In this document: positions 23,485 through 45,959 of the stretch, in pieces
Position numbering within the stretch: position 1 is the stretch's first letter
How the letters are laid out: each line of letters starts with the position of its first letter
Origin: Chloroflexota bacterium
GTDB lineage: Bacteria; Chloroflexota; Dormibacteria; CF-121
Direction of reading: 5' to 3'
Length of the DNA: 64,000 bases
Assembly: GCA_005889535.1 (NCBI GenBank)
Contig: VBHC01000111.1
Location: 6,060 to 70,059 of the forward strand
The notes under the pieces: generated by a model
The model's input: the letters and a program-made list of their open reading frames with translations, nothing else
Told to the model about the DNA's origin: nothing
Databases searched by the model: none
Position numbers and translations under genes: made by a program

Positions 23485-23501
23485 TTGTTGCTCCCAAGAG
23501 C

Positions 23502-25103: not shown

Positions 25104-25204
25104 ATAGGACTAGGGAAACGGCCCCCGCTCCCGGCTGGAGCCCCCGTTTGGCGGCCCAATGATAGCAGGAAAATCGATGAATTCACGCTGAATCTCCGTA
25201 GCAG

Positions 25205-25870
25205 ATGAGCGAACGGGCGTCCTTCATCCTCGGACGGGCGCTACCGCTGGGAGTCTTTGGCTTCCTGGTGGCGATCCAGGCCGAGCTCGCCTACTCCGGG
25301 ATCGAGCGCGCCGTCAGCGGCGAGCTGGACCGTGCCGAAGCCATGTATCTGCTCAACCGTGTCCTGACGGTGGCCTTCTTCGCCTTCCTGCTCGGGATCT
25401 ACGCCGTGCGCAGCAAGGCGATCGCCCACGATCACAATCCGCTCGCCATCGCGGTCGCGCTGATCGGCAGCTTCATCCTCTATGGCATCTTCTTGATCCC
25501 GGGCCAGCTGCGCAGCACCGACGTCTGGGTGCTCGCCTTGAGTGATATCTGCCTGGCCTGCGGCATGGTCCTCGCCCTCTACTCCCTGAGCTATCTCCGA
25601 AACCGCTTCAGCATCGTGCCCGAGGCCCGCGGACTGGTGACCAGCGGCCCCTACCGGTTCGTGCGCCACCCGATCTATCTGGGGGAGATCATCGCCGGCT
25701 TTGGCCTGGTGACGCCGACCCTCTTCAGTCTGCACGCGCTGGTCCTCGCCATTTTTGTGGCTGCCCAATTGTGTCGGACGTACTACGAGGAGCGAATGCT
25801 GCAGAGGGTGTATCCCACCTACGAGGGCTACGCCAGGCGGACCCGCCGGCTCATTCCCTTCCTCGTCTAG
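25205..25870 (+). CDS. ICMT/PEMT-family membrane methyltransferase
   Basis: Five to six TM segments and the C-terminal motif GPYRFVRHPIYLGEIIAGFG...YEERML typical of isoprenylcysteine carboxyl / phospholipid methyltransferases. Confidence 0.65.
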   Translation: MSERASFILGRALPLGVFGFLVAIQAELAYSGIERAVSGELDRAEAMYLLNRVLTVAFFAFLLGIYAVRSKAIAHDHNPLAIAVALIGSFILYGIFLIPGQLRSTDVWVLALSDICLACGMVLALYSLSYLRNRFSIVPEARGLVTSGPYRFVRHPIYLGEIIAGFGLVTPTLFSLHALVLAIFVAAQLCRTYYEERMLQRVYPTYEGYARRTRRLIPFLV

Positions 25871-25874
25871 TAGA

Positions 25875-27464
25875 TTGGCAAGCCTGGCCCGCTCCTCAGT
25901 TCCGTCCTCGCTCGAGCCAGAGGCTGACCGCTGGCTCGCCCGAGCCGTGCGCTGGCTCGACCTGCCGCATTTCTTCACCATCGCCATCTTCGTGACGATG
26001 CTGATCGCCGCCATCCAACCGGTCACCGACCCGGACTTCTGGTGGCACATCACCACCGGAAACTGGATCCTCAGCCACCACGCCGTACCGCACCAGGACC
26101 TGTACACCTTTACCGTTCCCGACCATCGCTGGATCACCCACGAGTGGCTGAGCGAAGTCGTGCTCGCGGTGCTCTATGCCGTTGGACGGCTGCCCCTGGT
26201 CAGCCTGACGCTGGGCGCCGTAACCGCCGCCGGATTCCTGCTGGTCTACCTCGCCATCGATCGCCGGGTCAACTTCGTGATCGCCGGACTCGCCCTGGCC
26301 CTCGGGGTGGCGGCAGCCAATCCCATCTGGGGACCGCGCATCCAGATGATCACTTTCGCGCTCAGCGCGCTGACTTACCTGTGGGTCAAGCGGTTTTGCG
26401 AAGGCAACAGCCGCGCGCTCTATTTCCTGCCCGCCGTCATGCTCGTCTGGGTTAACCTCCACGCCGGGTTTGTCCTCGGCTACGCGATCCTCGGCGTTGC
26501 CCTGGTGGTGGAGGGGCTGCGCTACCTGCTCCGGCGTCCGGGGTCAATGCCCCTCCCCCGATTGCGGGCCATGACGTTGGTGCTTGCGGCCTCGATCGGC
26601 GTCGCCATCCTCAACCCGAACGGCTGGGATATCTATCTCTATCCCTTCCAGACCGGGGGCAGCCCCGAACAGCAGCGGCTCATCGTCGAATGGTTCTCGC
26701 CCAACTTCCAGATGTCGCAGATCTGGGCCTTCGAGGCGATGATCTTCCTGATCATCGGCGGGCTCGCCCTGTCGCGCCGCATCGAGCCCCGCCAGTTCCT
26801 GCTGCTCCTGATCGGGCTTGGCCTCGCTCTGCACTCCGTGCGCAACCTTTCGCTGTTCATGCTCGTCGCGGTCCCCGCCCTGGCCGACTATGCCCAGCAG
26901 GCGCGCGAGCGCCTTCCCTGGCGGTGGCCGCTGCGGGTGCCGAAGACCACGCCGGTCACCTTCGTCGCCAACGTCGCCATGGTGCTGGCGCTGGTCGCGC
27001 TCGTGGCGCTGGCCAGCGTGCCCAGCGCGCTACAGCGCGTCGACGGGAAGCTGGTCGCCCGGGACTTCCCCATCAAGGCCGCGGATTTCCTCGTCCAGCA
27101 CCCGGCCCCGGGCCGCATGTTGAATGCCTACGGGTGGGGCGGCTACCTGATCTTCCGCTTATACGGTCGCGAGCCGGCGGAGCCGGTCTTCATCTTCGGT
27201 GACGCGGCGCTCTCCGGCGACGCGTTGCTGCGTGACTACGATCACCTGCAGTCACTGGGTTCGGACCAGGCCCAGTTGTTCGAGCATTACCGCATCAACT
27301 GGGTGATCTTCCACACCAGTGACCCGATCATTACCGGTCTGCGCCAGGACCACAACGCGCCCGGCCATGTCGGGTGGTTCGAGCTGCGCACCTTCGACAA
27401 GGCGACGATCATGATGCGCGACACCCCCGACAATCGCTCATACGCCGCCCGGGCAGCGACGTGA
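25875..27464 (+). CDS. polytopic GT-C-like membrane protein, family B (DPDxWWH motif), copy 1
   Basis: About 11-13 TM segments with a C-terminal soluble domain. Paralog of 39998..41569 (DPDFWWHITTGNWIL vs DPDLWWHLANGRLMV; C-terminal NAYGWGGYLIFRLY vs NYYDYGGYLLWRLY). Start uncertain; the TTG at 25875 lies just after the upstream stop. Confidence 0.5.
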   Translation: MASLARSSVPSSLEPEADRWLARAVRWLDLPHFFTIAIFVTMLIAAIQPVTDPDFWWHITTGNWILSHHAVPHQDLYTFTVPDHRWITHEWLSEVVLAVLYAVGRLPLVSLTLGAVTAAGFLLVYLAIDRRVNFVIAGLALALGVAAANPIWGPRIQMITFALSALTYLWVKRFCEGNSRALYFLPAVMLVWVNLHAGFVLGYAILGVALVVEGLRYLLRRPGSMPLPRLRAMTLVLAASIGVAILNPNGWDIYLYPFQTGGSPEQQRLIVEWFSPNFQMSQIWAFEAMIFLIIGGLALSRRIEPRQFLLLLIGLGLALHSVRNLSLFMLVAVPALADYAQQARERLPWRWPLRVPKTTPVTFVANVAMVLALVALVALASVPSALQRVDGKLVARDFPIKAADFLVQHPAPGRMLNAYGWGGYLIFRLYGREPAEPVFIFGDAALSGDALLRDYDHLQSLGSDQAQLFEHYRINWVIFHTSDPIITGLRQDHNAPGHVGWFELRTFDKATIMMRDTPDNRSYAARAAT

Positions 27465-28672
27465 GTGGTGCCGGCCGCCGGCGGCTGCGCCAGCGGCTGC
27501 TGATCGTCTTCCTCGTCGCGATGACGATCCCGTATGTCCGCCAGCTGGCGAGCTCACCGACCGTGGGACAGGACTTCCGGGCCTTCTTCGCGGCGGCCAC
27601 CGTCGTCGCGCACCACGGTGATCCCTACGATTGGCCCTCGCTGGCGCGCGTCGAGGCTCAACTCTACGATGCCCCGCGGCAGCTCGAGCCGGGCGACCCG
27701 GCCTTCTATGAGTTTCTCGCGTATCCGGAAGGTCCCTGGCTCGCCTTCGCCCTCGTCCCGTTGACCTCACTGCCGTGGCAGGTCGCGGACGCGATCTACA
27801 CCACTCTTCTGTTGCTGGTGCTGGTCGCCGCTTCGTTCACGGTTTTCGCCGTGCTGGGCTGGCGGCCCAGACGAGCCTGGCTCGGTGCCGCCTGCGCCGC
27901 CCTGTCCGCGGTCGGGTTCATCAATCTCTTCATGGGCCAGGTCTCGGTCATCGTGTTCGGCGCCTTTGTCGCGGCCTGGTACCTGGCCGGCCGCGGCCAC
28001 GGCTGGTGGGCCGGCCTGGCGCTGGTGCTGATCTGGCTGAAGCCCAACATCGGCCTTCCGCTGCCGCTGGTCATCGTTTTGCTCGAGCCGTCGATGGCGC
28101 GCCGCGTCGTCGGGGGCTTCCTCGCCGCCTCGGCGGTCGCCTTCGGCGCCGCGACCGTCGTGCTTCACGCCGGCTTTGTGGAGTGGCCGCTGCAGATCCC
28201 GCGCATGTGGCAGGCGGTGCAGGGCATCCAGCCGGATATCGCCTCCATCGAGAGTTTTTTCTACCCTGGCCTGCACGGCTGGCCAAAGCTGGCGGCCCTG
28301 CTGCTGACCATGGCCGCCGCCACCGGCTATGCCGGATGGGCGCTGCGGCGTGCTTCCGACCCACAGACCCGCGGGCTCACGCTGTTGCTCGTCTGGCTAG
28401 CCGCGCTCCCCTTCGTCCAGTCGTACGACATGATCTTGCTGCTGCCGCTGGTGGTGGTGCTGCTCGGCCCGCGGCTCGAGGGCTGGGCCGACCCGCTGGT
28501 CGAGGTCACGATCTGGGCCTTTTTGATCTTTCCCCTCTGTTATTTCCTGGGGCTCCGCCTGGGGTACTTCAACGGCTTCACCGCGATCCCGGTCACCCTG
28601 CTGTTGCTCGCGTGGCACCGTCGACGCATCGCCCGGGCTCCGGCCCAGCTCGCCCCGGCGGTGGCCGCATGA
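27461..28672 (+). CDS. GT87/DUF2029-like GT-C glycosyltransferase, copy 2
   Basis: The GTG start overlaps the upstream stop (GTGA). Motifs VGQDFRAFFAAATVVAHHGDPYD and WLKPNIGLPLPLV. Confidence 0.55.
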   Translation: MSGAGRRRLRQRLLIVFLVAMTIPYVRQLASSPTVGQDFRAFFAAATVVAHHGDPYDWPSLARVEAQLYDAPRQLEPGDPAFYEFLAYPEGPWLAFALVPLTSLPWQVADAIYTTLLLLVLVAASFTVFAVLGWRPRRAWLGAACAALSAVGFINLFMGQVSVIVFGAFVAAWYLAGRGHGWWAGLALVLIWLKPNIGLPLPLVIVLLEPSMARRVVGGFLAASAVAFGAATVVLHAGFVEWPLQIPRMWQAVQGIQPDIASIESFFYPGLHGWPKLAALLLTMAAATGYAGWALRRASDPQTRGLTLLLVWLAALPFVQSYDMILLLPLVVVLLGPRLEGWADPLVEVTIWAFLIFPLCYFLGLRLGYFNGFTAIPVTLLLLAWHRRRIARAPAQLAPAVAA

Positions 28673-30018
28673 GCGTACGCACCTGGTATGGCATCCGCCG
28701 GCTGTACGAGCCTCGATTCCGGGAGCGCATCCTTTTGCTGCTGGTCGTCATCGCCGCCGCCTACTACGCCGTCTGGTCGATCGCGCAGTGGGTCGGCCTG
28801 ACGCCCGCCGCGTTGCGCTTCGACTTCGTCAATTACTTCGGCGGCGCCCAGGCAGCGGCGCACGGCGGCGACATCTACGGCGATTTCAAGCGCTCCTGGG
28901 GCACCGAAGCCTGGGTGGTCGCGTACATCTATCCTCCCTTCTTCGCGGAGCTGCTCGCGCCCCTGACTCCGCTCGGACTTTTGACCGCGGCTCGGATCTG
29001 GCTGATCGCCGTGCACGGCGCATTCCTCGGATCGCTGGCGCTGATACTTCGCATCCATCCCGAGCTCTCCCGCACCGGCCGCCGCCTGCTGCTGCTGGCA
29101 GCGTTCGGCTTCATGCCGGTCTATCTCAACCTGAAGTTCCAGCAGGTGGCCACGGTGTGGCTGCTGCTCGTCACCATCACGCTGTGGGCCGCCCTGCGGC
29201 GCCGGGATGGGATTGCCGGAATCTTCATCGCGCTGGCCGCATCGCTCAAGGTCACGCCGATCTTTTTGATTCCGCTCTTCGCCCGGCTGGGCCGTCTCCG
29301 CCTGGCGGCCATCGGCGCTGCGGCGCTGGTGGCGCTGACGGCAACCACGATGCTGGCCTCACCCGGCAGCTGGCAATTCTTCACGGTCGTGCTCCCGCGG
29401 ATCGGCTTGGGCACGGCCAACTGGGACAACGGTTCGATCGATGGGCTCGTCAGCCGGATCGTGCAGCTCTCGCCGAACCTATTGGGAAGCATGACCCAGA
29501 GTGCGGCCAAGGTCGTGATCGCGCTGGCCGCCGTTGTCGTTATCGGCGTCACGATCTGGCAGGCCCGGGGCGTCGCCCCACGCGAGCCGCGCTTCAGTGC
29601 GATGCGAGCGTTTGAGACGTCGTCAGCGGACGCTCGATGGACGCTCCGGCTCAGCGTGGCCGCGCTGATGACCTCGTTGCTGATCGCCAGCAGCGTGACC
29701 TGGCAGCACCACCTCGTCACCTTGCTCCTCCCGGTGGCGACCGCGGTCGCCTGGATCACGGTCCGGCGGCCCGGCCATCGATACGGGTGGTGGTTGTTCG
29801 CCGGTTACGCGATGTGCTGGCTCGACCGGCGCGCCTTTCCGTTGCCGGCCGACCTGCAGGTGCACGGCGCCGGCCAGGCCGTGCTGGTGCTGGCCGGAAC
29901 ATCGGTCAAACTCCTCGGTCTGCTGTTGCTGTGGACGCTGCTGCTGCAGATGTTGCGACGAGAGCGGTCCGGCGCGGTCATGCAGCCTGCGCGACCCGCG
30001 GCGGGCGCCGCCGCCTGA
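28669..30018 (+). CDS. GT87/DUF2029-like GT-C glycosyltransferase, copy 3
   Basis: The ATG overlaps the upstream stop (ATGA). Motifs LRFDFVNYFGGAQAAAHGGDIYG and AASLKVTPIFLIPLF. The ORF-track 747-aa ORF is a frame run-on through the previous gene. Confidence 0.6.
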   Translation: MSVRTWYGIRRLYEPRFRERILLLLVVIAAAYYAVWSIAQWVGLTPAALRFDFVNYFGGAQAAAHGGDIYGDFKRSWGTEAWVVAYIYPPFFAELLAPLTPLGLLTAARIWLIAVHGAFLGSLALILRIHPELSRTGRRLLLLAAFGFMPVYLNLKFQQVATVWLLLVTITLWAALRRRDGIAGIFIALAASLKVTPIFLIPLFARLGRLRLAAIGAAALVALTATTMLASPGSWQFFTVVLPRIGLGTANWDNGSIDGLVSRIVQLSPNLLGSMTQSAAKVVIALAAVVVIGVTIWQARGVAPREPRFSAMRAFETSSADARWTLRLSVAALMTSLLIASSVTWQHHLVTLLLPVATAVAWITVRRPGHRYGWWLFAGYAMCWLDRRAFPLPADLQVHGAGQAVLVLAGTSVKLLGLLLLWTLLLQMLRRERSGAVMQPARPAAGAAA

Positions 30019-31132
30019 TCCACACCGCCCGGCCGTACCAGGCGAGGCAGGCCAGCAGCACCACCGGTGCCAGGTTGACCAGCGGCCGTCCCAGGTCGAC
30101 GAGCAGGGCCAGCGCAATAGCGAGGCAGGCTGGCGCCGGGCTGGGCACCGCCCCCGCACGGTAGAGGACGAACCCGAGCCAGGCCGGCACGACCAGGAGG
30201 ACGGTGTCGTAGGGCAGCGCATGCGGAGAGAAGCCGATGGCGATCCCGGTCGCCAGGGTGGCGACGGCGATCGAGCTCCGGTGACGAATGGCAATTGGCG
30301 TCAGCACCGCCAGGACGACACCCCACATGGCGAAGCCGACGATGGTCGGCAGCGGTCCGGGAAGCAGGGGCGCGATGGTCGCGATCAGGCTCTCGTTGTA
30401 GCGCACCACGCCCTGGCCGGCGTCGAGGGCGCTCCAGACCATGGCCAGCAGACCGGATGGACCGCCGGCGAGCATCGGGCTGAGGCCCACGACGACGGCG
30501 CCCCCCATCGCCGCGCCCAGCGCCCGCCACTGGCGCCGGGCGCCAAGCAGGATCAGGTAGGCCGGCAGATACTGCGGCTTGAGCGCCAGCAGCAGGCCGC
30601 CAACGAAAGCCAGGCGCCATGAATCCCGGCACCAGGCACCGATGAGAAGGACTGCCCCCAGGAGAAGCAGCGCCGTTGACTGGCCCTCCGAGAGAAGAGC
30701 CCAGGTCGCCGGAAAGCCGAGCAGCCCCAGGAGCGCGATGGCCGGCGCCCGCCGGCCAAGCGGCAACCATCGCCCCATCAGGACGAGCGACAGGCAGAGC
30801 AGAAGAAGCGTGATGAGCTGCCAGGCGTGGAAGGCCACCTCCAGCGGAAGAAATGTCAGCGGCACCAGGGGCAACGCCCCTGCCAGCGGGGCGTCGAACG
30901 GGAGCCGCGGGTCAATCGCGTTGTCGGACAGGCGCAGCATCAGCGGGCCGAGTTGATCGGTCTGGTAGATGGCGTCCGGCCGGCCCTCGCGGATCAGCAG
31001 CGCCGCCGAATAGGTGATCGTGAAATCGGCGCTGCGGCGGGCGAGGCTGGACTCACGGCCCACGACGAGCAGGCCGGCGATCACGAACCCGACCGCCACG
31101 GCCATCGTCCACCGCTGCCAGCGGCCGGTCAT
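29978..31132 (-). CDS. GT87/DUF2029-like GT-C glycosyltransferase, copy 4
   Basis: Motifs ADFTITYSAALLIREGRPDAIYQ and LLLALKPQYLPAYLIL. Its 3' end overlaps the convergent copy 3 by 41 nt. Confidence 0.6.
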   Translation of the reverse strand: MTGRWQRWTMAVAVGFVIAGLLVVGRESSLARRSADFTITYSAALLIREGRPDAIYQTDQLGPLMLRLSDNAIDPRLPFDAPLAGALPLVPLTFLPLEVAFHAWQLITLLLLCLSLVLMGRWLPLGRRAPAIALLGLLGFPATWALLSEGQSTALLLLGAVLLIGAWCRDSWRLAFVGGLLLALKPQYLPAYLILLGARRQWRALGAAMGGAVVVGLSPMLAGGPSGLLAMVWSALDAGQGVVRYNESLIATIAPLLPGPLPTIVGFAMWGVVLAVLTPIAIRHRSSIAVATLATGIAIGFSPHALPYDTVLLVVPAWLGFVLYRAGAVPSPAPACLAIALALLVDLGRPLVNLAPVVLLACLAWYGRAVWIRRRRPPRVAQAA

Positions 31133-32730
31133 CGGGTCACCTCGAAGAGCGCCGCGCCGCCCTCACGCTCGATCAGCCGAAGTCCAGGGTCACGCTCGAG
31201 GCTGCCGGTGGCCTCGCCGTCGGTGGTGAGCACATAGTCGATATGGTTGGCCGCGAGAAACCTGGCGCGCTCGACCTGGTCCCAGTCATGAAAAAAGGCC
31301 AGCGCTTCGGAGGACTTGCGGGGGGCATCGATCGTCATCTCCGGGTGGCCGGCGAAGACGCGGGCATCGGTCTGCGCCGGGACGAAGATGCCGTCGAGGT
31401 AGGTGGTCAGCACCAGATCCCGGGCCGATACCTGCGGGGCCAGCCGCGCCAGGAGCACGGCTTCCGCGCGGCTCTCGTACTCCGCCCGCGGATCCAACCG
31501 GAAGCCCGCGACCCAGTACGCCTGAGCGAGGCTGAAGATTCCAAAAAAACTCGAGGCCGTGAGCGCCACAGCCAGCAGCCGCCGCCGCCAGCGAAGCCCC
31601 CGAACTTCGCGCAGCAGCGCAAGCAGGCCGGGCGTTGCGCACAACCCGAATGGGATGGAGCTGGCCATGAAACTGCGGCCCAGAACTCCGCTGATGCCGG
31701 GCGAAAACATGAAGATCGTCATCCCCGCGATCCACAGCGCGGGGAGCAGAAGATCACCGCGAAGCCGGCGGCGCCAGATCGCCACGACGATCAAGCCGCT
31801 GGCCATCAGGTGCGAGAGGACCAGGAACCCGAACGGATCGCCCACCTCCAGCACCGGACGGATCACCGACAGAGCGGCGGGCGTTGTGCGCCAGACCCAG
31901 AACAGATAGATCAGATATGGCAGCTGCACCAATGCGCCGGCTAACGCAAACCAGCCGGCGTGGCGATGCCGCCGAACGATCGACCAGCCCAGCAGCGCGC
32001 CCACGGCGAGAAGGGCGAGCTGCGGATAGATCAGCTGCAGGCCCAGGATTGCCGCGATTCCACCGAGCAGCCAGCGCCGGCTGGCGCGATGACGCAGGCG
32101 GAGCCCGGCCACCATCGTCAAACACATCAGCGCCATGGCCCAGGACAGATGCGGCGCCATCGCGATCAGGTCCGCCACGCTGGTGCCAGGGACGCTCATC
32201 TCGGTGGCACGGGTGACGACCGGCCCGATGTGGACCTCGCTCGGCAGGAGCGCGCCGACGCCGCCCCCCAGGACGCAGAGCAGGAAGGCCCAGCGGCGCA
32301 GCAGCCGTGGCCGAAACAATTCCCCGGTCAGCATGAAGACCGCGGCCAGTAGGGCTCCCGCTGCGGCCACCCGCGCGAGGTGATAGAGCCATGGCCCGGC
32401 CGCCCAACCCAGCAGGTGAGCCGGCCACAGGTACCAGGAGTAGAGCACGATGCCGGGCAGGGTCTCCGCTGTGAACGCGGAGTGGAAGAGCCAGGCGCCC
32501 TGCCAGCCGGTGCGCCACATCGCCTGGTAGACGTACGCGTCGCGGGCGATGACGACGTATCCGGAGAACACGCTGTCCGCTGGCACGCGAATGGCGGCGA
32601 GCGCGATCGGCGGAATCGTGAGCAGGCAGAGCACGGCACCGACGACCGCCGGCCACCGCCAGGCTGCCGGACCGCGCCTCGTCCGGGGGTTTTGCTCAGC
32701 CACCGCCCAGCGGCGCGCGGCGAAGGCCAT
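31129..32730 (-). CDS. ArnT/PMT-like (GT39/GT83-type) GT-C glycosyltransferase with C-terminal extracytoplasmic domain, copy 1
   Basis: First-loop motif YVVIARDAYVYQAMWRTG resembles the ArnT/PMT D-E-x-x-Y...R signature. Paralog of 35322..36953, including the C-terminal domain. Coupled to its neighbours by 4-nt and 1-nt overlaps. Confidence 0.5.
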   Translation of the reverse strand: MAFAARRWAVAEQNPRTRRGPAAWRWPAVVGAVLCLLTIPPIALAAIRVPADSVFSGYVVIARDAYVYQAMWRTGWQGAWLFHSAFTAETLPGIVLYSWYLWPAHLLGWAAGPWLYHLARVAAAGALLAAVFMLTGELFRPRLLRRWAFLLCVLGGGVGALLPSEVHIGPVVTRATEMSVPGTSVADLIAMAPHLSWAMALMCLTMVAGLRLRHRASRRWLLGGIAAILGLQLIYPQLALLAVGALLGWSIVRRHRHAGWFALAGALVQLPYLIYLFWVWRTTPAALSVIRPVLEVGDPFGFLVLSHLMASGLIVVAIWRRRLRGDLLLPALWIAGMTIFMFSPGISGVLGRSFMASSIPFGLCATPGLLALLREVRGLRWRRRLLAVALTASSFFGIFSLAQAYWVAGFRLDPRAEYESRAEAVLLARLAPQVSARDLVLTTYLDGIFVPAQTDARVFAGHPEMTIDAPRKSSEALAFFHDWDQVERARFLAANHIDYVLTTDGEATGSLERDPGLRLIEREGGAALFEVTR

Positions 32731-34046: not shown

Positions 34047-34104
34047 GACGACGGTGTAACGACGAGTGTGAGGAACCCCTTCTCCGGGGCGTTATAGGCT
34101 GGCA

Positions 34105-35343
34105 GTGTCGTTTCCTCCCTCCGCGGCTCGGGCGATGCCGGCTGCGCCCGCCTCACGGAAGGTTCGGCCGGCGTTCGTCGCCCAGGCCGGCTTGATCGGC
34201 TCTGCGATCGCCGTCTATCTCGTCGTCCTCGGTGCCGCCGGGTTACGCCACCAGGACCTCGCCGCCTACCTGGGCGCCGCCCGCGACATCTTTGATGGGG
34301 CGCCGCTCTACGCCACGTTCCTCCACCATCCATTCCCCGACCCGACGCTGAGGCCGGCGTTCATCTACCCGCCGGTGTTCGCCCTGCTGATCGCTCCGTT
34401 GGGGCTGCTGCCTGAGGCGCTGGCGAGCGCGATCTGGCTGTTGATCGGCCAGGCGTCACTGATCGGCGCGATCGCCCTCATCGTTCGCTGGCGAAGGCCA
34501 CCAGGCTGGGCGGTGACCACGCTGGTGCTGGCGACCCTGACCTTCTATCCGCTGTGGATCGATGCCGTGCAGGGTCAGGCGAACCTGCCAATCCTGCTGC
34601 TGGTTACCGCCGGCATCATCGGCATCGTCCAGGGCCGGCCGCGGTTCGGTGCGGCGCTGGGGGTCGCCGCCGCATTGAAGCTGACCCCGATCATCCTGCT
34701 GGTCTGGCTCGTGCTCGACCGCCGCCTTCGAGCGGCGGGCTGGATGGTCGGCGCCCTCGCCGCCCTCACCGGCGTTGGCGCGGTATTTCGCTTCCACGAC
34801 ACTGTCGTCTTTGTCGGGCAAGTCCTGCCCACCCTGGGCCACGGCACGGCCTTCTACGCCAACCAGTCGCTTAGCGGTTTTCGCGTCCGGGTTTCCAGTG
34901 CCAACCCCTACACCCGGCCGTGGGTCGAGATTCCGTGGGCCTTCCTCCTGCCTGCCGCCGTCGGCGTTCTCCTCGTCGGCGGGTGGTTCTGGCGTACGCA
35001 GCATCATTCGGGGCTGGCCCGCTGTGCCGCCTTCATACCGCTGATCCCGCTGCTGTCGTCGGTGACGTGGCCGCATCATCTTGTCATCCTGCTGCCCGTC
35101 ATCTGGTTGGGCGCCATCGCCCTCGCCGAACGCGAGTGGCCGATCATCCCCACGGTTGCCCTCGCCGGCTTGCTCTTCGTCTTCAGCGTGCTGTCCCGCT
35201 ATCCGGCCGGCCCGGCCTTTGGCCAGGCGGGTTTCCGCGATGCCCAGACCCACGACCCCATCGTGTTCGTGGCATCCAACGCGATGTTCTTTGGAACCCT
35301 GATGGTCTTTCTGGCCGCACCATGGCTGCTGCGCTCCCGCTAG
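34105..35343 (+). CDS. GT87/DUF2029-like GT-C glycosyltransferase, copy 6
   Basis: Motifs RHQDLAAYLGAARDIFDGAPLYA and AAALKLTPIILLVWLVL. Transcribed divergently from copy 5 across a 58-bp intergenic region. Confidence 0.6.
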   Translation: MSFPPSAARAMPAAPASRKVRPAFVAQAGLIGSAIAVYLVVLGAAGLRHQDLAAYLGAARDIFDGAPLYATFLHHPFPDPTLRPAFIYPPVFALLIAPLGLLPEALASAIWLLIGQASLIGAIALIVRWRRPPGWAVTTLVLATLTFYPLWIDAVQGQANLPILLLVTAGIIGIVQGRPRFGAALGVAAALKLTPIILLVWLVLDRRLRAAGWMVGALAALTGVGAVFRFHDTVVFVGQVLPTLGHGTAFYANQSLSGFRVRVSSANPYTRPWVEIPWAFLLPAAVGVLLVGGWFWRTQHHSGLARCAAFIPLIPLLSSVTWPHHLVILLPVIWLGAIALAEREWPIIPTVALAGLLFVFSVLSRYPAGPAFGQAGFRDAQTHDPIVFVASNAMFFGTLMVFLAAPWLLRSR

Positions 35344-36953
35344 ACCGGCCGCGTCCACGCCCGACCGCCCGCCGGCGACCGCGGCTCACCTTTGCCCTCG
35401 GCTTCGCTGCGGCCATCGCGGCGCTCTCGCTTCTGCCGTATCTGCTGGCCTACGCCTGGACGCCGCCTGGCCATCATTTCGCCGGCTTCTTCTTCATCGC
35501 CGACGACGCCACAACTTACCTCGCGAAGATGAGGCAGGGTGCGGACGGCTCCTGGCTCTGGTCCGATCCCTACACGAGCGAGCCGCATGGTGGCGTCTTT
35601 CTGTTCGGTTTCTATCTGCTGTTCGGCCATCTGGCCGCGCTGCTTCATCTCCCGCTGATCGCCACCTATCACCTCGCCCGGATTTCCGGCGCCCTCGTGC
35701 TCGTGCTGGCGGTCGACCGTCTCTGCCGGCGGCTGCTCCCGCCCGAGCTTCGCCGCCTCGGACTGGTCCTCGTCATCCTGGGGTCGGGCCTCGGCTTTCT
35801 CGCGCAGGCAGCGGGCAATCCCGCCATCTTTGGCACCAAGCTCGAGGCGCTCGACCTCCATCTTCCCGAGCTGAGCGGCTGGTACTCGATCATCGCCATC
35901 CCGCACTTCGCCTGGGCGACGGCGCTCATCATCGCGAGCCTGCTGGGGCTGCTGCAGATCGCCGATCGGCCTGGCCGGCGCTCCGTGGCGCTGACCTCGG
36001 CGGCGCTCCTGGCGCTCACCGCGATCCATCCCCAGATGATCCCGGTCATCGCCATCATCTGGATCGGGTACCAGGTGCTGCTGCTGGCGTGGGGCCGGCG
36101 ACCCGCATGGCGAACCCTCGCCGCCGAGATGGTGCCGTTTATCGCCACCGCGCCGCTGCTCGCCTACAACGCCTGGATCCTCTTCTCCGACCCGACCATC
36201 GCCGAATGGGCACGGCAGTGGCGCCATCAGGCGCCGGCCCCACTCAGCCTCGCGGTCAGCCTGGGGGTTCCCCTCCTGCTGGCCATCGGCGGGATGGTGA
36301 TCGTCTGGCGGCGCCGCGACCAGGGCCTGGCGCTAATGCTGACGTGGCCGCCGCTGGTCATCCTCCTCCTCTACCTTCCCAACCTGGCGAACATTCAGCG
36401 CCGGCTGCTCGACGCGCTCTACGTCCCGATCGGCATCCTGGCGGCGATCGGCCTCCGCGCCCTGACGGCCCGCCTCCGCCGCGCCTCCGCCCGCCGGGTC
36501 ACCGCCATCCTGGTGACCACATGCTGCTTCGCCTCGGCCATCGTGCTGGCCATCGCCCTGCGCTTCGCTTCGGGCGCCTTTCCCGAGGCCTACGTGGGCA
36601 ACGATGGCTGGCAGGCCATGGCCTGGCTGTCCGCGCACCATCAGGCCGGCGACCGGGCGCTTTCCTCTCCCCAGGCGGGGCAGCTACTGCCCGCCTGGGC
36701 CGGGGTCAGTGTCTACGTCGGCCACTACAGCGAAACGCTCGACTATTTCCAGAAGATCCACAACGTCGCGACCGTGCTCACCCCGGGCCAGCCGCCGGCA
36801 ACCGTGCAGGGATTTCTCAAGGCCAACGGCATCACGCTGCTGTACTGGGGACCCGACGAGGCAAAAACCGGCTTCATGCCGGCGGGGCAACCGTATTTGC
36901 AGGCTGTGCATGACGAGGGCACCGTCGTCATCTATCGGGTGATGGGAGGATAG
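35322..36953 (+). CDS. ArnT/PMT-like GT-C glycosyltransferase with C-terminal domain, copy 2
   Basis: Motif FFFIADDATTYLAKMRQG. Paralog of 31129..32730. The ATG at 35322 overlaps the upstream gene by 22 nt. The ORF-track 677-aa form is an upstream extension. Confidence 0.5.
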   Translation: MAAALPLDRPRPRPTARRRPRLTFALGFAAAIAALSLLPYLLAYAWTPPGHHFAGFFFIADDATTYLAKMRQGADGSWLWSDPYTSEPHGGVFLFGFYLLFGHLAALLHLPLIATYHLARISGALVLVLAVDRLCRRLLPPELRRLGLVLVILGSGLGFLAQAAGNPAIFGTKLEALDLHLPELSGWYSIIAIPHFAWATALIIASLLGLLQIADRPGRRSVALTSAALLALTAIHPQMIPVIAIIWIGYQVLLLAWGRRPAWRTLAAEMVPFIATAPLLAYNAWILFSDPTIAEWARQWRHQAPAPLSLAVSLGVPLLLAIGGMVIVWRRRDQGLALMLTWPPLVILLLYLPNLANIQRRLLDALYVPIGILAAIGLRALTARLRRASARRVTAILVTTCCFASAIVLAIALRFASGAFPEAYVGNDGWQAMAWLSAHHQAGDRALSSPQAGQLLPAWAGVSVYVGHYSETLDYFQKIHNVATVLTPGQPPATVQGFLKANGITLLYWGPDEAKTGFMPAGQPYLQAVHDEGTVVIYRVMGG

Positions 36954-36956
36954 ACG

Positions 36957-38564
36957 GTGGCGATGCTCGAGCCGGTTCGAAGGCCGGCGGCGATTGTTGC
37001 TCACCGTCGATGGCCTTCGCCGGCGCTGATCGCCCAGGGACTGGCGGTCACCCTCTTTTTCTCGCTGGCCGCGCTGCGCTTTACGATCGCGCCCCTTGAC
37101 CGCTACGACGAAGGCGTCACCCTGACCAAAGCCGCCCTGACGGCGGCCGGGTCGATTCCCTTTCGCGACTACTGGATCACCTATGGACCACTGGACACAT
37201 ACGCGCTGGCCGCTGCGTTCAAAGCATTCGGGATCAACCTGGTCATCGAGCGGGCCCTGGGGGTCGTGGTGCTGGGGCTGCTGTTCCTGGTTACGTATGC
37301 AGTGACCGGGCGACTCGGGCTGCGCGGTGGCATGCGGTTGCTCCTCACCGGGCTCATCAGTGTGGTACCGATCTCGGTTCCCGCCTTCAACTCCGCGTTC
37401 CTGGCAAACCTGGTCGGCGTGTCGGCGGTGCTGGCCTTCCTCTGCGGCATCGATGACGACCGGGCGCGCTGGCCGCTGCTGGCCGGGGCCCTGGTCGGAC
37501 TGGCATCCTTCTCTCGACCCGAGTTCGCCCTTGCGCTCGGAATCGGGCTGGGCGCCGGCTATCTGGTGATGGGGCTAACGATCATGTCAGTCCGGGACCG
37601 GCTGATGCCCTATGTGCTCGGTGCCGTGAGCGTTGCCGCCGGCCTCTGGGGTGGCACAGTCCTCATGGCCGGAATCAGGCCCGTCTGGTTCGACCTGGTC
37701 ACCTATGCCACCAGCCTCTACCCGCGGGCTCGTGGCATCCCGTTCGGTCAGGGTGACGAGGCCCCCATCGTGATCGTCCTCGGCGTGGTGTTTTCGCTGA
37801 TCTGGGTCTGGGCGACCATCCGCGCCTACCGCCAGCGCGCGGTCGCCGGTGAGCGAGCCCGGCTGGCGGCGCTGCTCGTCGGCGGCATGCTGATCTTCAC
37901 CTGGGTGCGCACCCGGGCCGACGGGATTCACGCGATGGACGCCTGGCCGCTGACGGCCATCCTGCTCGCCCTGCTGCTCGAGCGCCGCGGCCGGCAGGTC
38001 CGACCGGCGACTGGCGCGCTGCCGGCGCTGGTGCCAATCGCCGGCATCCTCTTGTTGAGCCTGGGGGCGGGCGGGCTAGCCTATCGCGACCTGGCCCGGC
38101 CGCACGCCGCGGCCGGCATTCCGCACAGCGGCATCAGTGGCCAACGCGCCTGGATGCCGACGCCCGAGCTGGCCGGCGTCATTCGGGAGATCGATGCGGT
38201 CACCCCGCCCGACCGTCCCATCTGGGTCGGACTCCAGCGAAATGACCTGGTCACCTTCAACGACACGATGCTCTACTTTCTCAGCGGCAGAAAGCCCGGC
38301 ACCGTCTACTACGAGACCCTGCCCGGCCTTACCAATAGTGAGCCCGTCGAGCGGGCCATCGCGTGTCAGCTGGCGCGCGCCGGCGTCGAGTTGGCCGTGC
38401 TCGGCCCAAATGGCGCCGGCGAGCCGTGGAATCTGAGCTCAGTCAATGGGTCGCCGTATCTCGATCAGTGGTTGGCCGCTCGTACGACGGCCCGTTCGCA
38501 GCTCGGCCCCTATCTGCTGCTCAGGCTGACGCCTGGTTTGCGTCCTTCAGACCGATGTCCTTAG
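36957..38564 (+). CDS. GT-C-like membrane glycosyltransferase (DE-motif first loop) with C-terminal soluble domain
   Basis: First-loop motif LDRYDEGVTLTKAAL, ~10 TM segments and a ~170-aa C-terminal hydrophilic domain. Its 3' end overlaps the convergent GT2 gene by 44 nt. Confidence 0.5.
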   Translation: MAMLEPVRRPAAIVAHRRWPSPALIAQGLAVTLFFSLAALRFTIAPLDRYDEGVTLTKAALTAAGSIPFRDYWITYGPLDTYALAAAFKAFGINLVIERALGVVVLGLLFLVTYAVTGRLGLRGGMRLLLTGLISVVPISVPAFNSAFLANLVGVSAVLAFLCGIDDDRARWPLLAGALVGLASFSRPEFALALGIGLGAGYLVMGLTIMSVRDRLMPYVLGAVSVAAGLWGGTVLMAGIRPVWFDLVTYATSLYPRARGIPFGQGDEAPIVIVLGVVFSLIWVWATIRAYRQRAVAGERARLAALLVGGMLIFTWVRTRADGIHAMDAWPLTAILLALLLERRGRQVRPATGALPALVPIAGILLLSLGAGGLAYRDLARPHAAAGIPHSGISGQRAWMPTPELAGVIREIDAVTPPDRPIWVGLQRNDLVTFNDTMLYFLSGRKPGTVYYETLPGLTNSEPVERAIACQLARAGVELAVLGPNGAGEPWNLSSVNGSPYLDQWLAARTTARSQLGPYLLLRLTPGLRPSDRCP

Positions 38565-39282
38565 TCGGGTGTTTGCGGACACGTCCGGGGATGGCCAGCA
38601 GCTCGAGGAACATCGCCGTCGAGTCGCGGATCGGGTGCACCCGGCTCTGCGGCGAGTTGATCCAGCGGGTCGGCACCTCAACAACCTGGTAGCCGGCGTG
38701 CTGCGCTCGGTAGAGCACCTCCACGTCGAAGCCGAAGCCTCGGGTCTGTAGCACCGGAAAGACCCGGTCCGCGACTTCCGCCGTGAATGCCTTGAAGCCG
38801 CACTGCGTGTCGTGCACGCCGCCGAGCACGAAGATGCGGACCAACCGGTTGAAGATCTTGCCCATGGTTTCCCGGTACCAGGGCTGATGCAGCTCCACCT
38901 GGGAGGACCGCAATCCGCGGGAGGCGATCGCTACTCCGGCCCCGGTGTGAAGCGGACGCAGCAGCTTTTCCATGTCATCAATGGGAACACTCAGGTCCGC
39001 ATCGCTGAACACCCGGTAACGACCACGAGCCGCCACCATCCCGAGTCGCACCGCCACGCCCTTGCCGGCATTCCGCTCCGCGACGACCAGCTTCAGCTGC
39101 GGCCAGCGCTTCGCCCGCTGCGCAACAACTTCGGCTGTGGCATCGCGGCTGCCGTCATCGACCACGATCACCTCGGCGGTGAGGCCTGCGCGCTTGAGGT
39201 AGGCCTCAATCCGGTCCAGGGTGGCGGGCAGCCGCAGCGCTTCGTTGAAGGCCGGGATCACGATTGAAATCTCCGGCGTCAT
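38521..39282 (-). CDS. GT2 polyprenyl-phosphate hexose synthase (DPM1/ALG5-like)
   Basis: IVIPAFNE, VVDDGSRD, GKGVAV and DADLS motifs. Soluble, ~250 aa. Confidence 0.7.
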   Translation of the reverse strand: MTPEISIVIPAFNEALRLPATLDRIEAYLKRAGLTAEVIVVDDGSRDATAEVVAQRAKRWPQLKLVVAERNAGKGVAVRLGMVAARGRYRVFSDADLSVPIDDMEKLLRPLHTGAGVAIASRGLRSSQVELHQPWYRETMGKIFNRLVRIFVLGGVHDTQCGFKAFTAEVADRVFPVLQTRGFGFDVEVLYRAQHAGYQVVEVPTRWINSPQSRVHPIRDSTAMFLELLAIPGRVRKHPTKDIGLKDANQASA

Positions 39283-40001
39283 GCGGCCTTCTCCACTTTC
39301 CGCATCTCGGCTTTGAAGGCGAGCAACTCACGGAAGGCGCGTGCCACGACACGCAGGTTGGCGCCGGTCTGTTTGCCGGACATGCGCGGATAATGGTGCA
39401 CCGGCACTTCCACGATGCGGGCATGCATCTGGCGGGCCAGGACCAGCACCTCGGTATTGATCAGGGCGCCATCCGAATGCAACGCCATGCGGGCAAGGAG
39501 ATCGCGCCGGATCAATTTGAAGGCGCAGTTGACGTCGCGCACCAGCCGGCCGAAGATGAGCCGCACCAGCGTGAAGAAGGCCCAGGCGTTGAGCCGCCGA
39601 AGCAGCGGGTCGCGGCGGCGCTTGCGGTACCCGGCCACGATATCGGCGTCGGCCGCCCGGGCGAGCAGCTGTGCGACCTCCACGGGATCAAACTGGTTGT
39701 CAGCATCCATCAGGAAAATCCAGGGAAACCGCGCGGCCTGGAATCCCGATCGCAGCGCGGCGCCGTATCCGCGATTGACCGGGTGGCGAACCACCCGCAG
39801 GTTCGGATGAGTGGTCTTGAGCCGGTCCAGCACGGCCGGGCTGCCGTCCTGGCTGCCGTCGTCGACCACGACGATCTCGAAGGCGCGAGCATGCCTCTCG
39901 AGCGCCTTCGCCATCCGGCCGACCGATTCCTCCAGGTTGGCGGCCTCGTTGAAGGCCGGCAGGACGGCGCTGATCTCCACCGATGACGCAACGGCGGTCA
40001 T
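39279..40001 (-). CDS. GT2 polyprenyl-phosphate hexose synthase (GtrB/Dpm1-like), second tandem copy
   Basis: LPAFNE, VVDDGSQDGS, NRGYGAAL and MDADNQ motifs. 4-nt overlaps with the genes on either side. Confidence 0.7.
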   Translation of the reverse strand: MTAVASSVEISAVLPAFNEAANLEESVGRMAKALERHARAFEIVVVDDGSQDGSPAVLDRLKTTHPNLRVVRHPVNRGYGAALRSGFQAARFPWIFLMDADNQFDPVEVAQLLARAADADIVAGYRKRRRDPLLRRLNAWAFFTLVRLIFGRLVRDVNCAFKLIRRDLLARMALHSDGALINTEVLVLARQMHARIVEVPVHHYPRMSGKQTGANLRVVARAFRELLAFKAEMRKVEKAA

Positions 40002-41569
40002 GGAGCGAAGCCTACTCGGGTGAAAACGGTGGCCACCCGATCACGGCTAAACAGCTGCCATTCCGGGTTCTGCCCGAGCAGTCCGACGAGGGGATGCCCG
40101 TTCGGCAGCACGATCGCGTCCGGGTCGGCGTCCGCGATAACCGAAGGCCAGCCCTCGGCCAGGTAGCTCACGCGCAGGTATCGGCTGAAGAGCGCCGATC
40201 CGTAGACTTCCACCCGACCATCGATGAAGATGCGGCTCCCCTGGGGATAGAGTCGCCACAGCAGGTAGCCGCCATAGTCGTAGTAGTTGAAGATGCGGAT
40301 CGGTTTCCCGATGGCCTGGAGCGCATCCGTCGCCTGCACCGGAAAGACCGAGGCGATGGCGTCCGCCTCATCGGCGGAGCGGAGATTCGGGAGGGCGCGG
40401 TAGGTGATCATGACGACAACGGCCACCACCAGCAGCGCCAGGTTGAGCACCCCAAGCGCGGCAGTGGGAGGGTTGAGCCGGATCGGCGTCCAGCGCAACG
40501 CCGCCTGGGCGGCCGGTCGGCGGACGGCCGTGGGCAGGATCGCCGAGAGGGTGACGAGCAGCGCCTGGGCGCCGCGAGCGGCGAGCGGCGCCGCGCCGAT
40601 GACGAACAACGGTACGTTGCGCTGCGATGCCAGCGCCAGGTACAGAAGGGCGAAGGCCCACAACCACTCGTGCGTGCGGGCCTTGACCTTCCCGGTCGCC
40701 AGCCCACCCAGGATAAGGAAGACGATCGCTTCGAACATCACGCCGGCCATCGAGTGGAAGTCCGGCGATGCCCATTCCTGGATGTTGTTCTGGATCAGGG
40801 GCGACGTCAGCGTGCCCAGCGGAAACAGCAGGGTCTGGACACCCGACGGGTTGACCACGGACAGCAGCGTCCCGGCCCCGATCGCCGACCCGAACAGGAT
40901 CCGGCGTCGCGCCGGCATCCCGGTCGCGGGCGAACGCCGGGCATCGAACCATTCACCGATCAAAAACAGGCCGGCGATGATGACGCCCACCAGGAAGCCA
41001 GAATGCAGGTTGGCCCACAACCAGATGAAGGGCAGAAGCAGGAATGGACTGAGGCGCCCTTGCCGGTAGAAACCGAGCCCGACCACCAGCACGCCCATCA
41101 TCAGGAGGTTGAGCAGCTGGGGACGGGCTCCCCAGGCTGTCGAACCCGCAAGCGCCCCGACCAGGGTCAGCACCGCGGCCAGCGTCGGATGCAAGTTCGA
41201 CCGCCGCAGAATGACGTAGAGGCAGATGGCGCCGGCCGTCACCACGCCGGCGAAGACGGCAACCAGGAGCGGCAGGCCGCCAAGCTGGTAGAGCAGGTAC
41301 ATGGTGAGATCGGCCAGCCACTCGTGCATCACCCAGGGGTGGCCGGCGGCGCTGAAGGAGTAGAGATCGACGTGGGGAATGGTGCCGGTCGTGACCATGA
41401 GGCGCCCGTTGGCCAGGTGCCACCACAGGTCGGGATCCAGCGGGGGCACCGCGGCCAGGCTGAAGATCGCCGTAAAAAGGAGCCAGCGAAGAACAACCGC
41501 GCTGCTAACCCGGCGCAGCGCGCCGACGACGACAGGCATCAGGGCATGTAACGAGCGGGTGACGGGCAT
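39998..41569 (-). CDS. polytopic GT-C-like membrane protein, family B (DPDxWWH motif), copy 2
   Basis: Motifs LDPDLWWHLANGRLMV...HEWL and the C-terminal NYYDYGGYLLWRLY. Paralog of 25875..27464. Confidence 0.55.
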   Translation of the reverse strand: MPVTRSLHALMPVVVGALRRVSSAVVLRWLLFTAIFSLAAVPPLDPDLWWHLANGRLMVTTGTIPHVDLYSFSAAGHPWVMHEWLADLTMYLLYQLGGLPLLVAVFAGVVTAGAICLYVILRRSNLHPTLAAVLTLVGALAGSTAWGARPQLLNLLMMGVLVVGLGFYRQGRLSPFLLLPFIWLWANLHSGFLVGVIIAGLFLIGEWFDARRSPATGMPARRRILFGSAIGAGTLLSVVNPSGVQTLLFPLGTLTSPLIQNNIQEWASPDFHSMAGVMFEAIVFLILGGLATGKVKARTHEWLWAFALLYLALASQRNVPLFVIGAAPLAARGAQALLVTLSAILPTAVRRPAAQAALRWTPIRLNPPTAALGVLNLALLVVAVVVMITYRALPNLRSADEADAIASVFPVQATDALQAIGKPIRIFNYYDYGGYLLWRLYPQGSRIFIDGRVEVYGSALFSRYLRVSYLAEGWPSVIADADPDAIVLPNGHPLVGLLGQNPEWQLFSRDRVATVFTRVGFAP

Positions 41570-41583
41570 CCTTCATGAGGTCG

Positions 41584-45822: not shown

Positions 45823-45959
45823 GGTGATCCCGTGACTGTCGTCGAATGCGGTGATCAGCGCCCGGATGTAACGCCCGACCCCGGTCGCGTTATTGTCGCT
45901 CAGCGCCCGCGTGTCGAGCGCTACCCGTAGTGGTTGTGTCGTCGCGACGCTAGACCGCC

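Follow-up and report, generated by a model that had tools for sequence, protein, structure and literature searches.

Organisation of the array

The stretch of DNA analysed here (the window) comprises 64,000 nucleotides of contig VBHC01000111.1 (positions 6,060 to 70,059 of the forward strand, assembly GCA_005889535.1) from a Chloroflexota bacterium of the GTDB lineage Dormibacteria, and it contains, at positions 25205-41569, a dense array of genes for polytopic membrane proteins that resemble glycosyltransferases of the GT-C fold. The window is high-GC DNA (62-69% GC). Based on codon-position GC content, the list of open reading frames (ORFs), and inspection of start codons, the array was resolved into thirteen genes, G1 to G13, which are spaced at near-zero distances and have a GC content at third codon positions (GC3) of 0.77-0.87 (Table 1). 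Ten of them (G2-G10 and G13) encode polytopic GT-C candidates with about 8-12 hydrophobic segments each, and the whole sequence of the array is thereby accounted for; the initial annotation of the window had counted eleven such proteins.

The near absence of intergenic space reported in that annotation was upheld by GC3 and the ORF list, and its coordinates for the junctions proved correct: GTGA at 27461 (G2/G3), ATGA at 28669 (G3/G4), overlaps of 4 nt at 31129-31132 and of 1 nt at 32730, and a divergent spacer of 58 bp between G7 and G8. Where three sub-operons had been proposed, strand and overlap give four transcription blocks, G1-G4 (+), G7-G5 (-), G8-G10 (+), and GT4a-TagA-G13-G12-G11 (-), the last of which includes two further glycosyltransferase genes outside the array. 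In this block, GT4a and TagA overlap by 4 nt, G13 lies 14 nt downstream of TagA and overlaps G12 by 4 nt, and, all on a single strand, G13, G12, and G11 adjoin or overlap with TagA and GT4a. No sigma-70-type consensus promoter was found in a scan of positions 25000-44700, including the 58-bp divergent spacer, and the number of terminator-like sites in the array scan was not above the shuffled expectation.

Table 1. Genes and other features of the array and of its surroundings in the window, with E-values of profile matches
Feature	Position	Strand	Description	Evidence and remarks
G1	25205..25870	+	PEMT/ICMT-like integral-membrane methyltransferase, 221 aa; opens the G1-G4 block	PEMT 3e-11, ICMT 1.9e-8
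G2	25875..27464	+	Family B GT-C-fold protein, 529 aa; motif DPDFWWH	Start uncertain: TTG 25875 or GTG 25947
G3	27461..28672	+	Divergent GT87, 403 aa	Pfam GT87 2.2e-10, 41 bits; hhalign against G4/G8 profile E 3e-10
G4	28669..30018	+	Canonical PimE-like GT87, 449 aa	Pfam GT87 1.4e-30, 107 bits
G5	29978..31132	-	Divergent GT87, 384 aa	Pfam GT87 2.7e-10, 41 bits
G6	31129..32730	-	Family A GT-C-like, 533 aa; motif IARDAYVY	29% identical to G9, E 1e-25
G7	32730..34046	-	Most divergent GT87, 438 aa; extra N-terminal transmembrane helices	Pfam GT87 7e-9, 36 bits
Divergent intergenic region	34047..34104		58 bp, between G7 (-) and G8 (+)	
G8	34105..35343	+	Canonical PimE-like GT87, 412 aa	Pfam GT87 1.3e-33, 117 bits; NCBIfam PimE model 2.5e-19
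G9	35322..36953	+	Family A GT-C-like, 543 aa; motif IADDATTYLAKM	Paralog of G6
G10	36957..38564	+	Divergent PMT_2/GT39-like GT-C, 535 aa; loop-1 YDEG	PF13231 matches in orthologs
G11	38521..39282	-	Soluble GT2, 253 aa; putative polyprenyl-phosphate hexose synthase	Pfam Glycos_transf_2 1.7e-28
G12	39279..40001	-	Soluble GT2, 240 aa; second putative polyprenyl-phosphate sugar synthase	Pfam Glycos_transf_2 4.7e-29
G13	39998..41569	-	Family B GT-C-like, 523 aa; DPDLWWH and FNYYDYGGYL	30% identical to G2 over 492 aa, E 2e-55
TagA	41584..42306	-	TagA/WecG-family (GT26) glycosyltransferase, in the block of G13-G12-G11	Pfam Glyco_tran_WecG 7e-56
GT4a	42303..43448	-	Cytoplasmic GT4	Pfam Glycos_transf_1 6.8e-31
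GT4b	43535..44608	+	Cytoplasmic GT4	Pfam Glyco_trans_1_4 9e-27
GT4c	44878..46032	-	Cytoplasmic GT4	Pfam Glycos_transf_1 2e-34
WecA-like	56594..57700	-	WecA/TagO-like polyprenyl-phosphate GlcNAc-1-P transferase	Pfam Glycos_transf_4 2.5e-39; NCBIfam WecA 1.7e-37, below cut-off
Gx	8564..9868	+	Sixth GT87 (PimE-like), 434 aa; outside the array	Pfam GT87 8.7e-28, 98 bits

The acidic motifs of the first loop are preceded by Lys/Arg-rich N-termini and are found 1-18 residues past the first predicted transmembrane (TM) segment, except for G7 in which the distance is 41 residues, and this is the position expected for an extracytoplasmic loop 1. The motifs that had been quoted for these proteins were all recovered in them, and pairwise alignment confirmed the mutual similarity of the pairs G2/G13 and G6/G9 and of the trio G4/G8/Gx (29-34% identity). 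An N-terminal TM module, a juxtamembrane helix in loop 1 carrying the catalytic acid, and likeness to solved GT-C enzymes were found. The most fitting reading of the ten proteins is that they are GT-C_A enzymes whose first outer loop carries a catalytic acid, and they belong to four sequence families.

PimE-like enzymes of family GT87

Five genes of the array (G3, G4, G5, G7, and G8), and not six as first proposed, match the Pfam profile of GT87 (PF09594) above its cut-off of 25 bits. Gx, which had been listed as a seventh copy, does belong to GT87 and is the sixth. No match to this profile was obtained for G2, G6, G9, G10, and G13. Gx is 34% identical to G8 and matches the NCBIfam model of PimE at 1e-17; the match of G4 to the same model (2e-12) is below its cut-off, and G7 has an additional weak match to PIG-U in Pfam.

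The residues of PimE that were shown experimentally to matter are D58, which is the catalytic base, Y62, Q163, K195, W319, H321, and H322 (PMC12041525). A profile of G8, G4, Gx, and their orthologs matches the solved PimE structure of M. abscessus (PDB code: 9dm5) with an E-value of 1.2e-19, and the columns equivalent to all seven residues are invariant in G8 and G4. In G8, D51 corresponds to D58, Y55 to Y62, K192 to K195, and W322, H324, and H325 to W319, H321, and H322. The Asp is kept in G3, G4, G5, G8, and Gx and the Lys in all six proteins, while the Tyr is found only in G4, G8, and Gx, with Phe at this position in G3. The WxHH motif is present in G4 and G8 and partially in Gx (WSFH). G3 and G5 retain the Asp, Gln, and Lys equivalents, and G7 retains the Lys and has a conserved TxEHDG...Q..E loop and an LKP motif.

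Putative donor synthases and the methyltransferase

The two genes alongside the GT-C candidates that were initially annotated as polyprenyl-phosphate-hexose synthases of family GT2, G11 and G12, are supported as such by their best solved relatives, which are DPMS (1.3e-18), ArnC (6e-14), and GtrB (2e-12) for G11 and ArnC (2e-24), DPMS (2e-16), and GtrB (6e-10) for G12. The two proteins are 32% identical, and neither has a TM segment or C-terminal TM helices. Their top matches in NCBIfam are AglJ, ArnC, a Dol-P-hexose transferase, and PpgS, all below the equivalog cut-offs.

G1, which had been called an ICMT-like methyltransferase, has about five hydrophobic segments and is above the cut-offs of both PEMT (PF04191; 44 bits against 25) and ICMT (PF04140; 35 bits against 24). 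Its match to the NCBIfam isoprenylcysteine methyltransferase (1.8e-9) is below the cut-off, and the gene is conserved in syntenic loci.

Families A and B and the PMT_2-like G10

The remaining five GT-C candidates (G2, G6, G9, G10, and G13) have no relevant Pfam match at E<=10, nor was anything relevant found for G2, G6, G9, and G13 in NCBIfam at E<=0.1. Searches of the PDB with the single sequences of G2, G9, G10, and G8 returned nothing meaningful. By pairwise comparison these five proteins sort into three groups, namely family B (G2 and G13), family A (G6 and G9), and G10 alone.

G2 and G13 had been paired by their 'DPDxWWH' motif and are real paralogs (Table 1). The AlphaFold2 model of G2 is confident (predicted local distance difference test (pLDDT) 84.6, predicted template modelling score 0.84) and shows a GT-C fold whose top Foldseek neighbours are human and yeast STT3 (E 4e-7, TM-score 0.54-0.61), with DPY19 close behind. 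There are about 11 TM helices in the model, with Lys/Arg-rich loops alternating on the cytoplasmic side and all of the conserved motifs on the outer side. D52-P-D54-x-W-W-H is located at the start of the first juxtamembrane helix, and D-P-D is invariant in loop 1 of family B. Further outer motifs are W-x-N-L-H, [LN]-I-x-E-W-x-S-P in a flexible loop of low pLDDT, and N-x-Y-x-x-G-G-Y-L, which opens the C-terminal domain. The motifs of G13 are conserved in all of its orthologs, and FNYYDYGGYL, identical in every one, resembles the WWDYG motif of the oligosaccharyltransferases (OSTs). The family B profile matched no PDB sequence, and family B is a GT-C family without a Pfam, NCBIfam, or PDB sequence match.

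In family A, an Asp and a Tyr of loop 1 are invariant and common to the families of G6 and G9 (alignment A1). The AlphaFold2 model of G9 is poor (pLDDT 60.8) owing to a shallow alignment; it shows a GT-C fold with the OSTs STT3 and AglB as closest neighbours. With a profile of diverse family A members, the best match among PDB sequences is the C-terminal domain of AglB-S2 (E 0.032), in which the WWDYGN segment of AglB aligns with S-x-x-x-G-N-x-I-P-A of family A. A profile search of 1.84 billion cluster representatives (50% identity clusters) gave 5863 family A clusters at E<=1e-3 and 1582 at E<=1e-30. Among 66 diverse members, Pfam matches were limited to DUF6541 (three members), DUF2206 (two, weak), YfhO (one), and Glycos_transf_2 (one, 6e-24). 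No earlier description turned up in the literature searched for Dormibacterota glycosyltransferases, DUF6541, and DUF2206.

In two relatives of G9, P0351 (785 aa) and P0293 (1391 aa), the family A domain is the C-terminal part of a longer protein. The family A match of P0351, which is named 'glycosyltransferase involved in cell wall biosynthesis', begins at residue 249, and P0351 is probably the member that matches Glycos_transf_2. If true, such a fusion of GT2 and family A would tie family A to polyprenyl-phosphate-sugar synthesis.

G10 matches neither PF13231 nor PF02366 at E<=10 and has weak NCBIfam matches to LA_3751 and Agl23 (E 0.003). However, PF13231 (PMT_2) is matched by 8 of its 47 orthologs (44-81% identical; best 1.5e-7), one ortholog carries the NCBI name GT39, and D51-E52-G53 is invariant in 47 sequences and kept in the syntenic orthologs. 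Therefore, the PMT/ArnT-type member of the array is probably G10 and not G6 or G9. The first-loop DE motif of G10 had been seen correctly; the 'ArnT/PMT-like' label was placed on G6 and G9, which match neither PF13231 nor PF02366 even at E<=10.

The groups are loosely joined by profile-profile comparison. With deep alignments, family A is linked to the G10 family (hhalign probability 93.5%, E 2e-7), to family B (E 3e-4 over 329 colinear columns), and, through loop 1 (D62...Y66), to loop 1 of GT87 with the equivalents of PimE D58...Y62 (E 7.5e-4), and no link was found between family B and the G10 family. Shallow ortholog profiles gave no link among families A, B, G10, and GT87 in hhalign, and the links appeared only with the deeper alignments.

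Relation to oligosaccharyltransferases

The structural neighbours of G2 and G9, the best of which are OST catalytic subunits, lead to an alternative explanation of the locus as one for protein glycosylation. Enzymes of family B, family A, or both would transfer a lipid-linked glycan to proteins en bloc, or G10, which falls in the PMT_2 clan, would O-mannosylate Ser/Thr and the GT87 enzymes would extend the mannose, as in actinobacterial O-mannosylation. The OSTs are defined by 13 TM helices, a DXD motif in each of external loops 1 and 2, TIXE or SVSE in external loop 5, and WWDYG as well as DK/MI in the C-terminal domain (PMC8342417). The fold neighbourhood and a C-terminal globular core domain are present in the models of families A and B. 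Family B also has putative equivalents of the OST motifs, arranged in the OST order, namely DPD in loop 1, [LN]-I-x-E-W in the outer loop of low pLDDT, as a possible counterpart of IxE, and FNYYDYGGY at the start of the C-terminal domain of G13.

Of the DXD motifs, that of external loop 1 is found only in family B, in which no clear second DXD was seen. Other features of these proteins argue against this explanation. The STT3 profile of Pfam gave no match at E<=10, and the G2 model has about 11 TM helices and not 13. The WWD triad, which reads the Ser/Thr of the sequon, is replaced by AYGWG in G2, S...GN.IPA in family A, and YYDYG in G13 with Tyr for Trp, such that only the Gly and the next hydrophobic residue are shared with the OSTs at the position aligned with WWDYG. 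No DK/MI motif was identified in families A and B. In the fold search with the G2 and G9 models, the scores of DPY19, Pmt4, ArnT, and AftA come close to those of the OSTs. Half of the related genomes lack G10, whose activity can therefore not be the core function, and the TagA/GT4 context is typical for wall polymers. Overall, we regard protein glycosylation as an unlikely role of the locus.

Families A and B were rejected as true OSTs on the STT3 profile, the number of TM helices, and the lack of a conserved WWD triad. They are new GT-C families with an OST-like architecture, and en bloc transfer is a minority possibility for them. An argument from a supposed 'DPDxxYH' loop-1 motif of AglB was not borne out and was dropped; the first DXD of AfAglB reads Gly-Asn-Asp (PMC8342417).

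A more specific form of the idea, to which we give only a slim chance, is a bacterial counterpart of archaeal and eukaryotic N-glycosylation, in which cytoplasmic GT26 and GT4 enzymes would start a lipid-diphosphate (lipid-PP) oligosaccharide, GT87 and other GT-C enzymes would extend it on the outer side of the membrane, and a shortened STT3/AglB-like enzyme of family B, not recognised before, would transfer it en bloc to protein or to a different acceptor. G13, with its DPD, IxE, and YYDYG motifs, would be the foremost candidate for the transferase. By analogy, extension from two lipid-phosphate sugars could proceed as by ALG3/9/12 and ALG6/8/10 with dolichyl-phosphate mannose and dolichyl-phosphate glucose. 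If this is true, families A and B would be new families of oligosaccharyl- or glycan-transferases.

Conservation in Dormibacterota

Candidatus Dormibacterota is an abundant and uncultured phylum of soil bacteria. G9 and G10 are 100% identical to proteins E6I74_05645 and E6I74_05650 of a soil metagenome-assembled genome (MAG) named 'Chloroflexi bacterium', and the named near homologs come from Candidatus Dormibacteraeota, Chloroflexi or Chloroflexota MAGs, and one Candidatus Angelobacter. A scan of GTDB species representatives gave 11 loci, from Dormibacterota MAGs, with an identical gene order in all of them: GT4c, GT4b, GT4a, TagA, G13 to G1, the histidine kinase, and CpaB. Across these species-level genomes, the order of nine of the ten GT-C genes is strictly kept. 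G10 is accessory, being absent from five of the ten loci that cover its slot. In one of these loci (L005), the slot holds two other large polytopic ORFs, 3619-5613 (-) and 5409-7082 (-), with only TgpA_N at 0.0065 in Pfam, and no G10 match was found at the slot in L001, L002, L006, and L007; the position seems to vary in which accessory GT-C-like genes it carries. In a literature search, no paper describing the cell envelope of Candidatus Dormibacterota was found.

The median identity of orthologs is 62-76% for most GT-C genes and 83% for G2, compared with 81-84% for the GT2 genes and 93% for the kinase, and the minimum is 47% for G3 and G5, the latter being among the fastest-evolving genes of the array. 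Thus, in the syntenic loci the GT-C genes diverge faster than their neighbours. Since the paralogs of the array are only about 30% identical to each other, their expansion is ancient and fixed and not recent. The HisKA_3 histidine kinase (24018-25103, -) is 90-98% identical across the loci, compared with 47-92% for the GT-C genes; no LuxR-type response regulator gene was seen beside it.

The faster divergence of the GT-C genes is what a variable surface decoration would give. In an explanation of this kind, each GT-C enzyme would add a single side-chain sugar to a polymer made elsewhere, teichoic-acid-like or another wall polysaccharide, in the manner of GtrA/GtrB/GtrX and CsbB/YfhO. The pairing of a GtrB/ArnC-like GT2 with a GT-C is a hallmark of these three-component systems, a few relatives of family A match YfhO, DUF6541, or DUF2206, and the G10 slot is variable, with two other polytopic genes lacking a Pfam family in L005. 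However, serotype-like genes would be expected to vary more than the nine GT-C genes of fixed order do, no GtrA-type flippase was found in the window, and five or six distinct PimE/MptC-like enzymes suggest the stepwise building of a complex structure. Decoration is considered distinctly improbable.

Proposed function of the locus

The gene families, folds, conserved residues, topology, operon structure, and synteny established computationally above make it probable, in our judgement, that the locus is a conserved assembly line for a cell-envelope glycan by the route of polyprenyl-phosphate sugars and GT-C enzymes. The core of the initial annotation, a polyprenyl-phosphate-sugar-dependent array of GT-C enzymes from several families with its donor GT2s, is supported by the matches to GT87, PimE, ArnC, DPMS, and GtrB and by the PMT_2 matches of the G10 orthologs. 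The comparison of neighbourhoods, Pfam, and AlphaFold bore out the GT-C nature, revealed the synteny, and altered several of the family labels. The products proposed in that annotation, a mannan, a lipoglycan, or glycosylated protein, are putative. The OST-like architecture of G2/G13 and G6/G9, the co-transcription with TagA and GT4, and the conservation in Candidatus Dormibacterota had been missed.

The proposed steps can be described as follows; in them, the identity of the sugars and of the acceptor, the sequence of events, and any part played by G1 are inferred. G11 and G12 would each charge polyprenyl phosphate with a different sugar, taken from a nucleotide sugar, on the inner side of the membrane, and the lipid-linked sugars would cross to the outer face by means of a flippase. 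There, ten enzymes of the GT-C fold would add sugars to the growing glycan. The five GT87 enzymes, being PimE/MptC-like, would use the Asp of loop 1 as the catalytic base, with the conserved Lys probably holding the leaving phosphate. The other GT-C enzymes would be the PMT_2-like G10 and the members of families A and B, in which a GT-C membrane core is predicted to be joined to an STT3/AglB-like C-terminal globular domain. As the acceptor, a lipid-PP-linked primer is most likely; it would be made by TagA, GT4a, GT4b, and GT4c, and for it the nearby WecA-like protein is a candidate initiator. The product would be a branched and probably mannose-containing heteroglycan, anchored to the wall or the membrane and analogous to mycobacterial lipomannan (LM), lipoarabinomannan (LAM), or arabinogalactan.

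Several points weigh against the assembly of an envelope glycan in this form. The window was searched for an LCP ligase and for a flippase, be it GtrA, Wzx, or a Wzm/Wzt- or TagGH-type ABC transporter, and neither was found; the WecA-like gene is 15 kb from the array, to which its link is positional only. G3, G5, and G7 lack the WxHH of PimE, and the loop-1 Asp of G7 is displaced by one position; therefore, some of the GT87 paralogs could have another chemistry or be non-catalytic. Membership in GT87 is no proof that the sugar is mannose. The G9 model is of low confidence, above all in loop 1, G13 and G6 are putatively assigned by paralogy alone, and the host organism is uncultured.

Comparison with known systems

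Mycobacterial GT-C genes are scattered, and the clusters of model actinobacteria are not known to have more than about four GT-C genes together. The pathways of phosphatidylinositol mannosides, LM, LAM, and arabinogalactan in mycobacteria and corynebacteria (PimE, MptA-D, AftA-D, EmbA-C, Ppm1, and the WecA primer) employ the same kind of extracytoplasmic GT-C enzymes fed by GT2-made polyprenyl-phosphate sugars. The likeness extends to the GT87 enzymes with the catalytic Asp/Tyr/Lys/His set of PimE and to a lipid-PP primer made by WecA-type and cytoplasmic glycosyltransferases. The present locus differs in that it belongs to another, uncultured phylum and has ten GT-C genes contiguous within 16 kb. 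No Emb or Aft family (GT53/GT85/GT89) was detected by sequence, four enzymes of the array are in families without a Pfam, NCBIfam, or PDB sequence match, in place of WbbL there is TagA (GT26), and no phosphatidylinositol-mannoside genes were identified.

The OSTs STT3, AglB, and PglB (GT66), together with the lumenal GT-C enzymes of the ALG pathway and their DPM1/ALG5 partners, come closest in structure to families A and B, also in the C-terminal globular core. Putative further common points are the DxD of loop 1 in family B and the IxE- and YYDYG-like motifs of G13, and the ALG pathway also has cytoplasmic GT4 steps followed by GT-C steps on two lipid-phosphate sugars. In addition to the differences described above, the proteins of families A and B are shorter (about 530 aa, compared with 700-870 aa).

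The pairing of a polyprenyl-phosphate-sugar GT2 with a GT-C enzyme that uses its product is common to ArnC/ArnT, GtrA/GtrB/GtrX, and CsbB-GtcA-YfhO. Among solved proteins, ArnC is the closest relative of G12, the top fold matches include ArnT, and some relatives of family A match YfhO and DUF6541. These three-component systems differ from the array, whose GT2 enzymes lack C-terminal TM helices, near which no GtrA-like flippase gene was found, and which has ten GT-C enzymes rather than one. With the PMT_2 enzymes (PF13231; GT39/GT83-type), the array has in common the loop-1 DE of G10, some G10 orthologs match PF13231, and family A is remotely related to the G10 family; the difference is that G10 and all proteins of families A and B are undetected by PF13231 and PF02366, and that G10 is accessory in the lineage.

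GT-C, GT87, and DPMS-like GT2 enzymes are already well known, and the system is of a known kind. What is new is a fixed, contiguous array of ten GT-C genes in an uncultured phylum, and two GT-C families without a Pfam, NCBIfam, or PDB sequence match, one of them very large, with an OST-like architecture. The locus gives a testable prediction that Dormibacterota build a complex surface glycan dependent on lipid carriers, much like mycobacteria. It also places two 'dark' GT-C families, A being nearly uncovered by Pfam and B without annotation, in an informative genomic setting. Knowing what they do would add to the known glycosyltransferase families and could bear on the evolution of OST-type enzymes.

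Neighbouring genes and further features of the window

On its downstream side, the array is followed by TagA/WecG, the three GT4 genes, MreB, a MurA-type enolpyruvyl transferase, the ATP synthase operon, and the WecA/TagO-like phosphotransferase. TagA is above the cut-off of the NCBIfam superfamily model and below that of the TarA equivalog (4e-32). The order MreB, MurA-type transferase, ATP synthase operon, and WecA/TagO-like transferase at 46922-57700 may reflect an old linkage of envelope genes with the atp operon in Terrabacteria. The order of the WecA-like gene, the atp operon, and murA is presumably the rfe(wecA)-atp-murA arrangement of Mycobacterium tuberculosis.

The upstream side includes the HisKA_3 kinase, a Tad pilus cluster, SecA, RF2, FtsEX, and envelope proteases. 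The Tad cluster has two CpaF-like ATPases, two TadB/C-like proteins, a protein with a receiver and a ParA-type domain (TadZ/CpaE-like), and CpaB. A 59-aa ORF (MLTNLYLRLRELLNREEGQGMVEYALILVLIAVVV..., 23512-23691, -) between CpaB and the histidine kinase resembles a type IVb pilin of the Flp family, which would complete the cluster at about 15605-23691.

Directly downstream of Gx, a 137-aa ORF (9869-10282, +) has a coding-like GC3 and no match in Pfam or NCBIfam; a GtrA-like flippase, which could be expected next to Gx, was not detected there. Gx is preceded by an asparaginase gene (7438-8544). Upstream of the latter lies a module for the control of cell-division hydrolases (4562-7486), made up of an FtsE-like ABC ATPase, FtsX, an M23 peptidase that has a PcsB-like coiled coil, and an S41 (Ctp) protease.

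Between 28000 and 36000, the AT skew flips between about -0.3 and about +0.33 in exact step with the strand that encodes the GT-C genes, a swing far stronger than in the rest of the window. It is attributed to T-rich second codon positions, that is, to the hydrophobic codons of membrane proteins, and the AT skew is a handy indicator of the strand in this high-GC genome.

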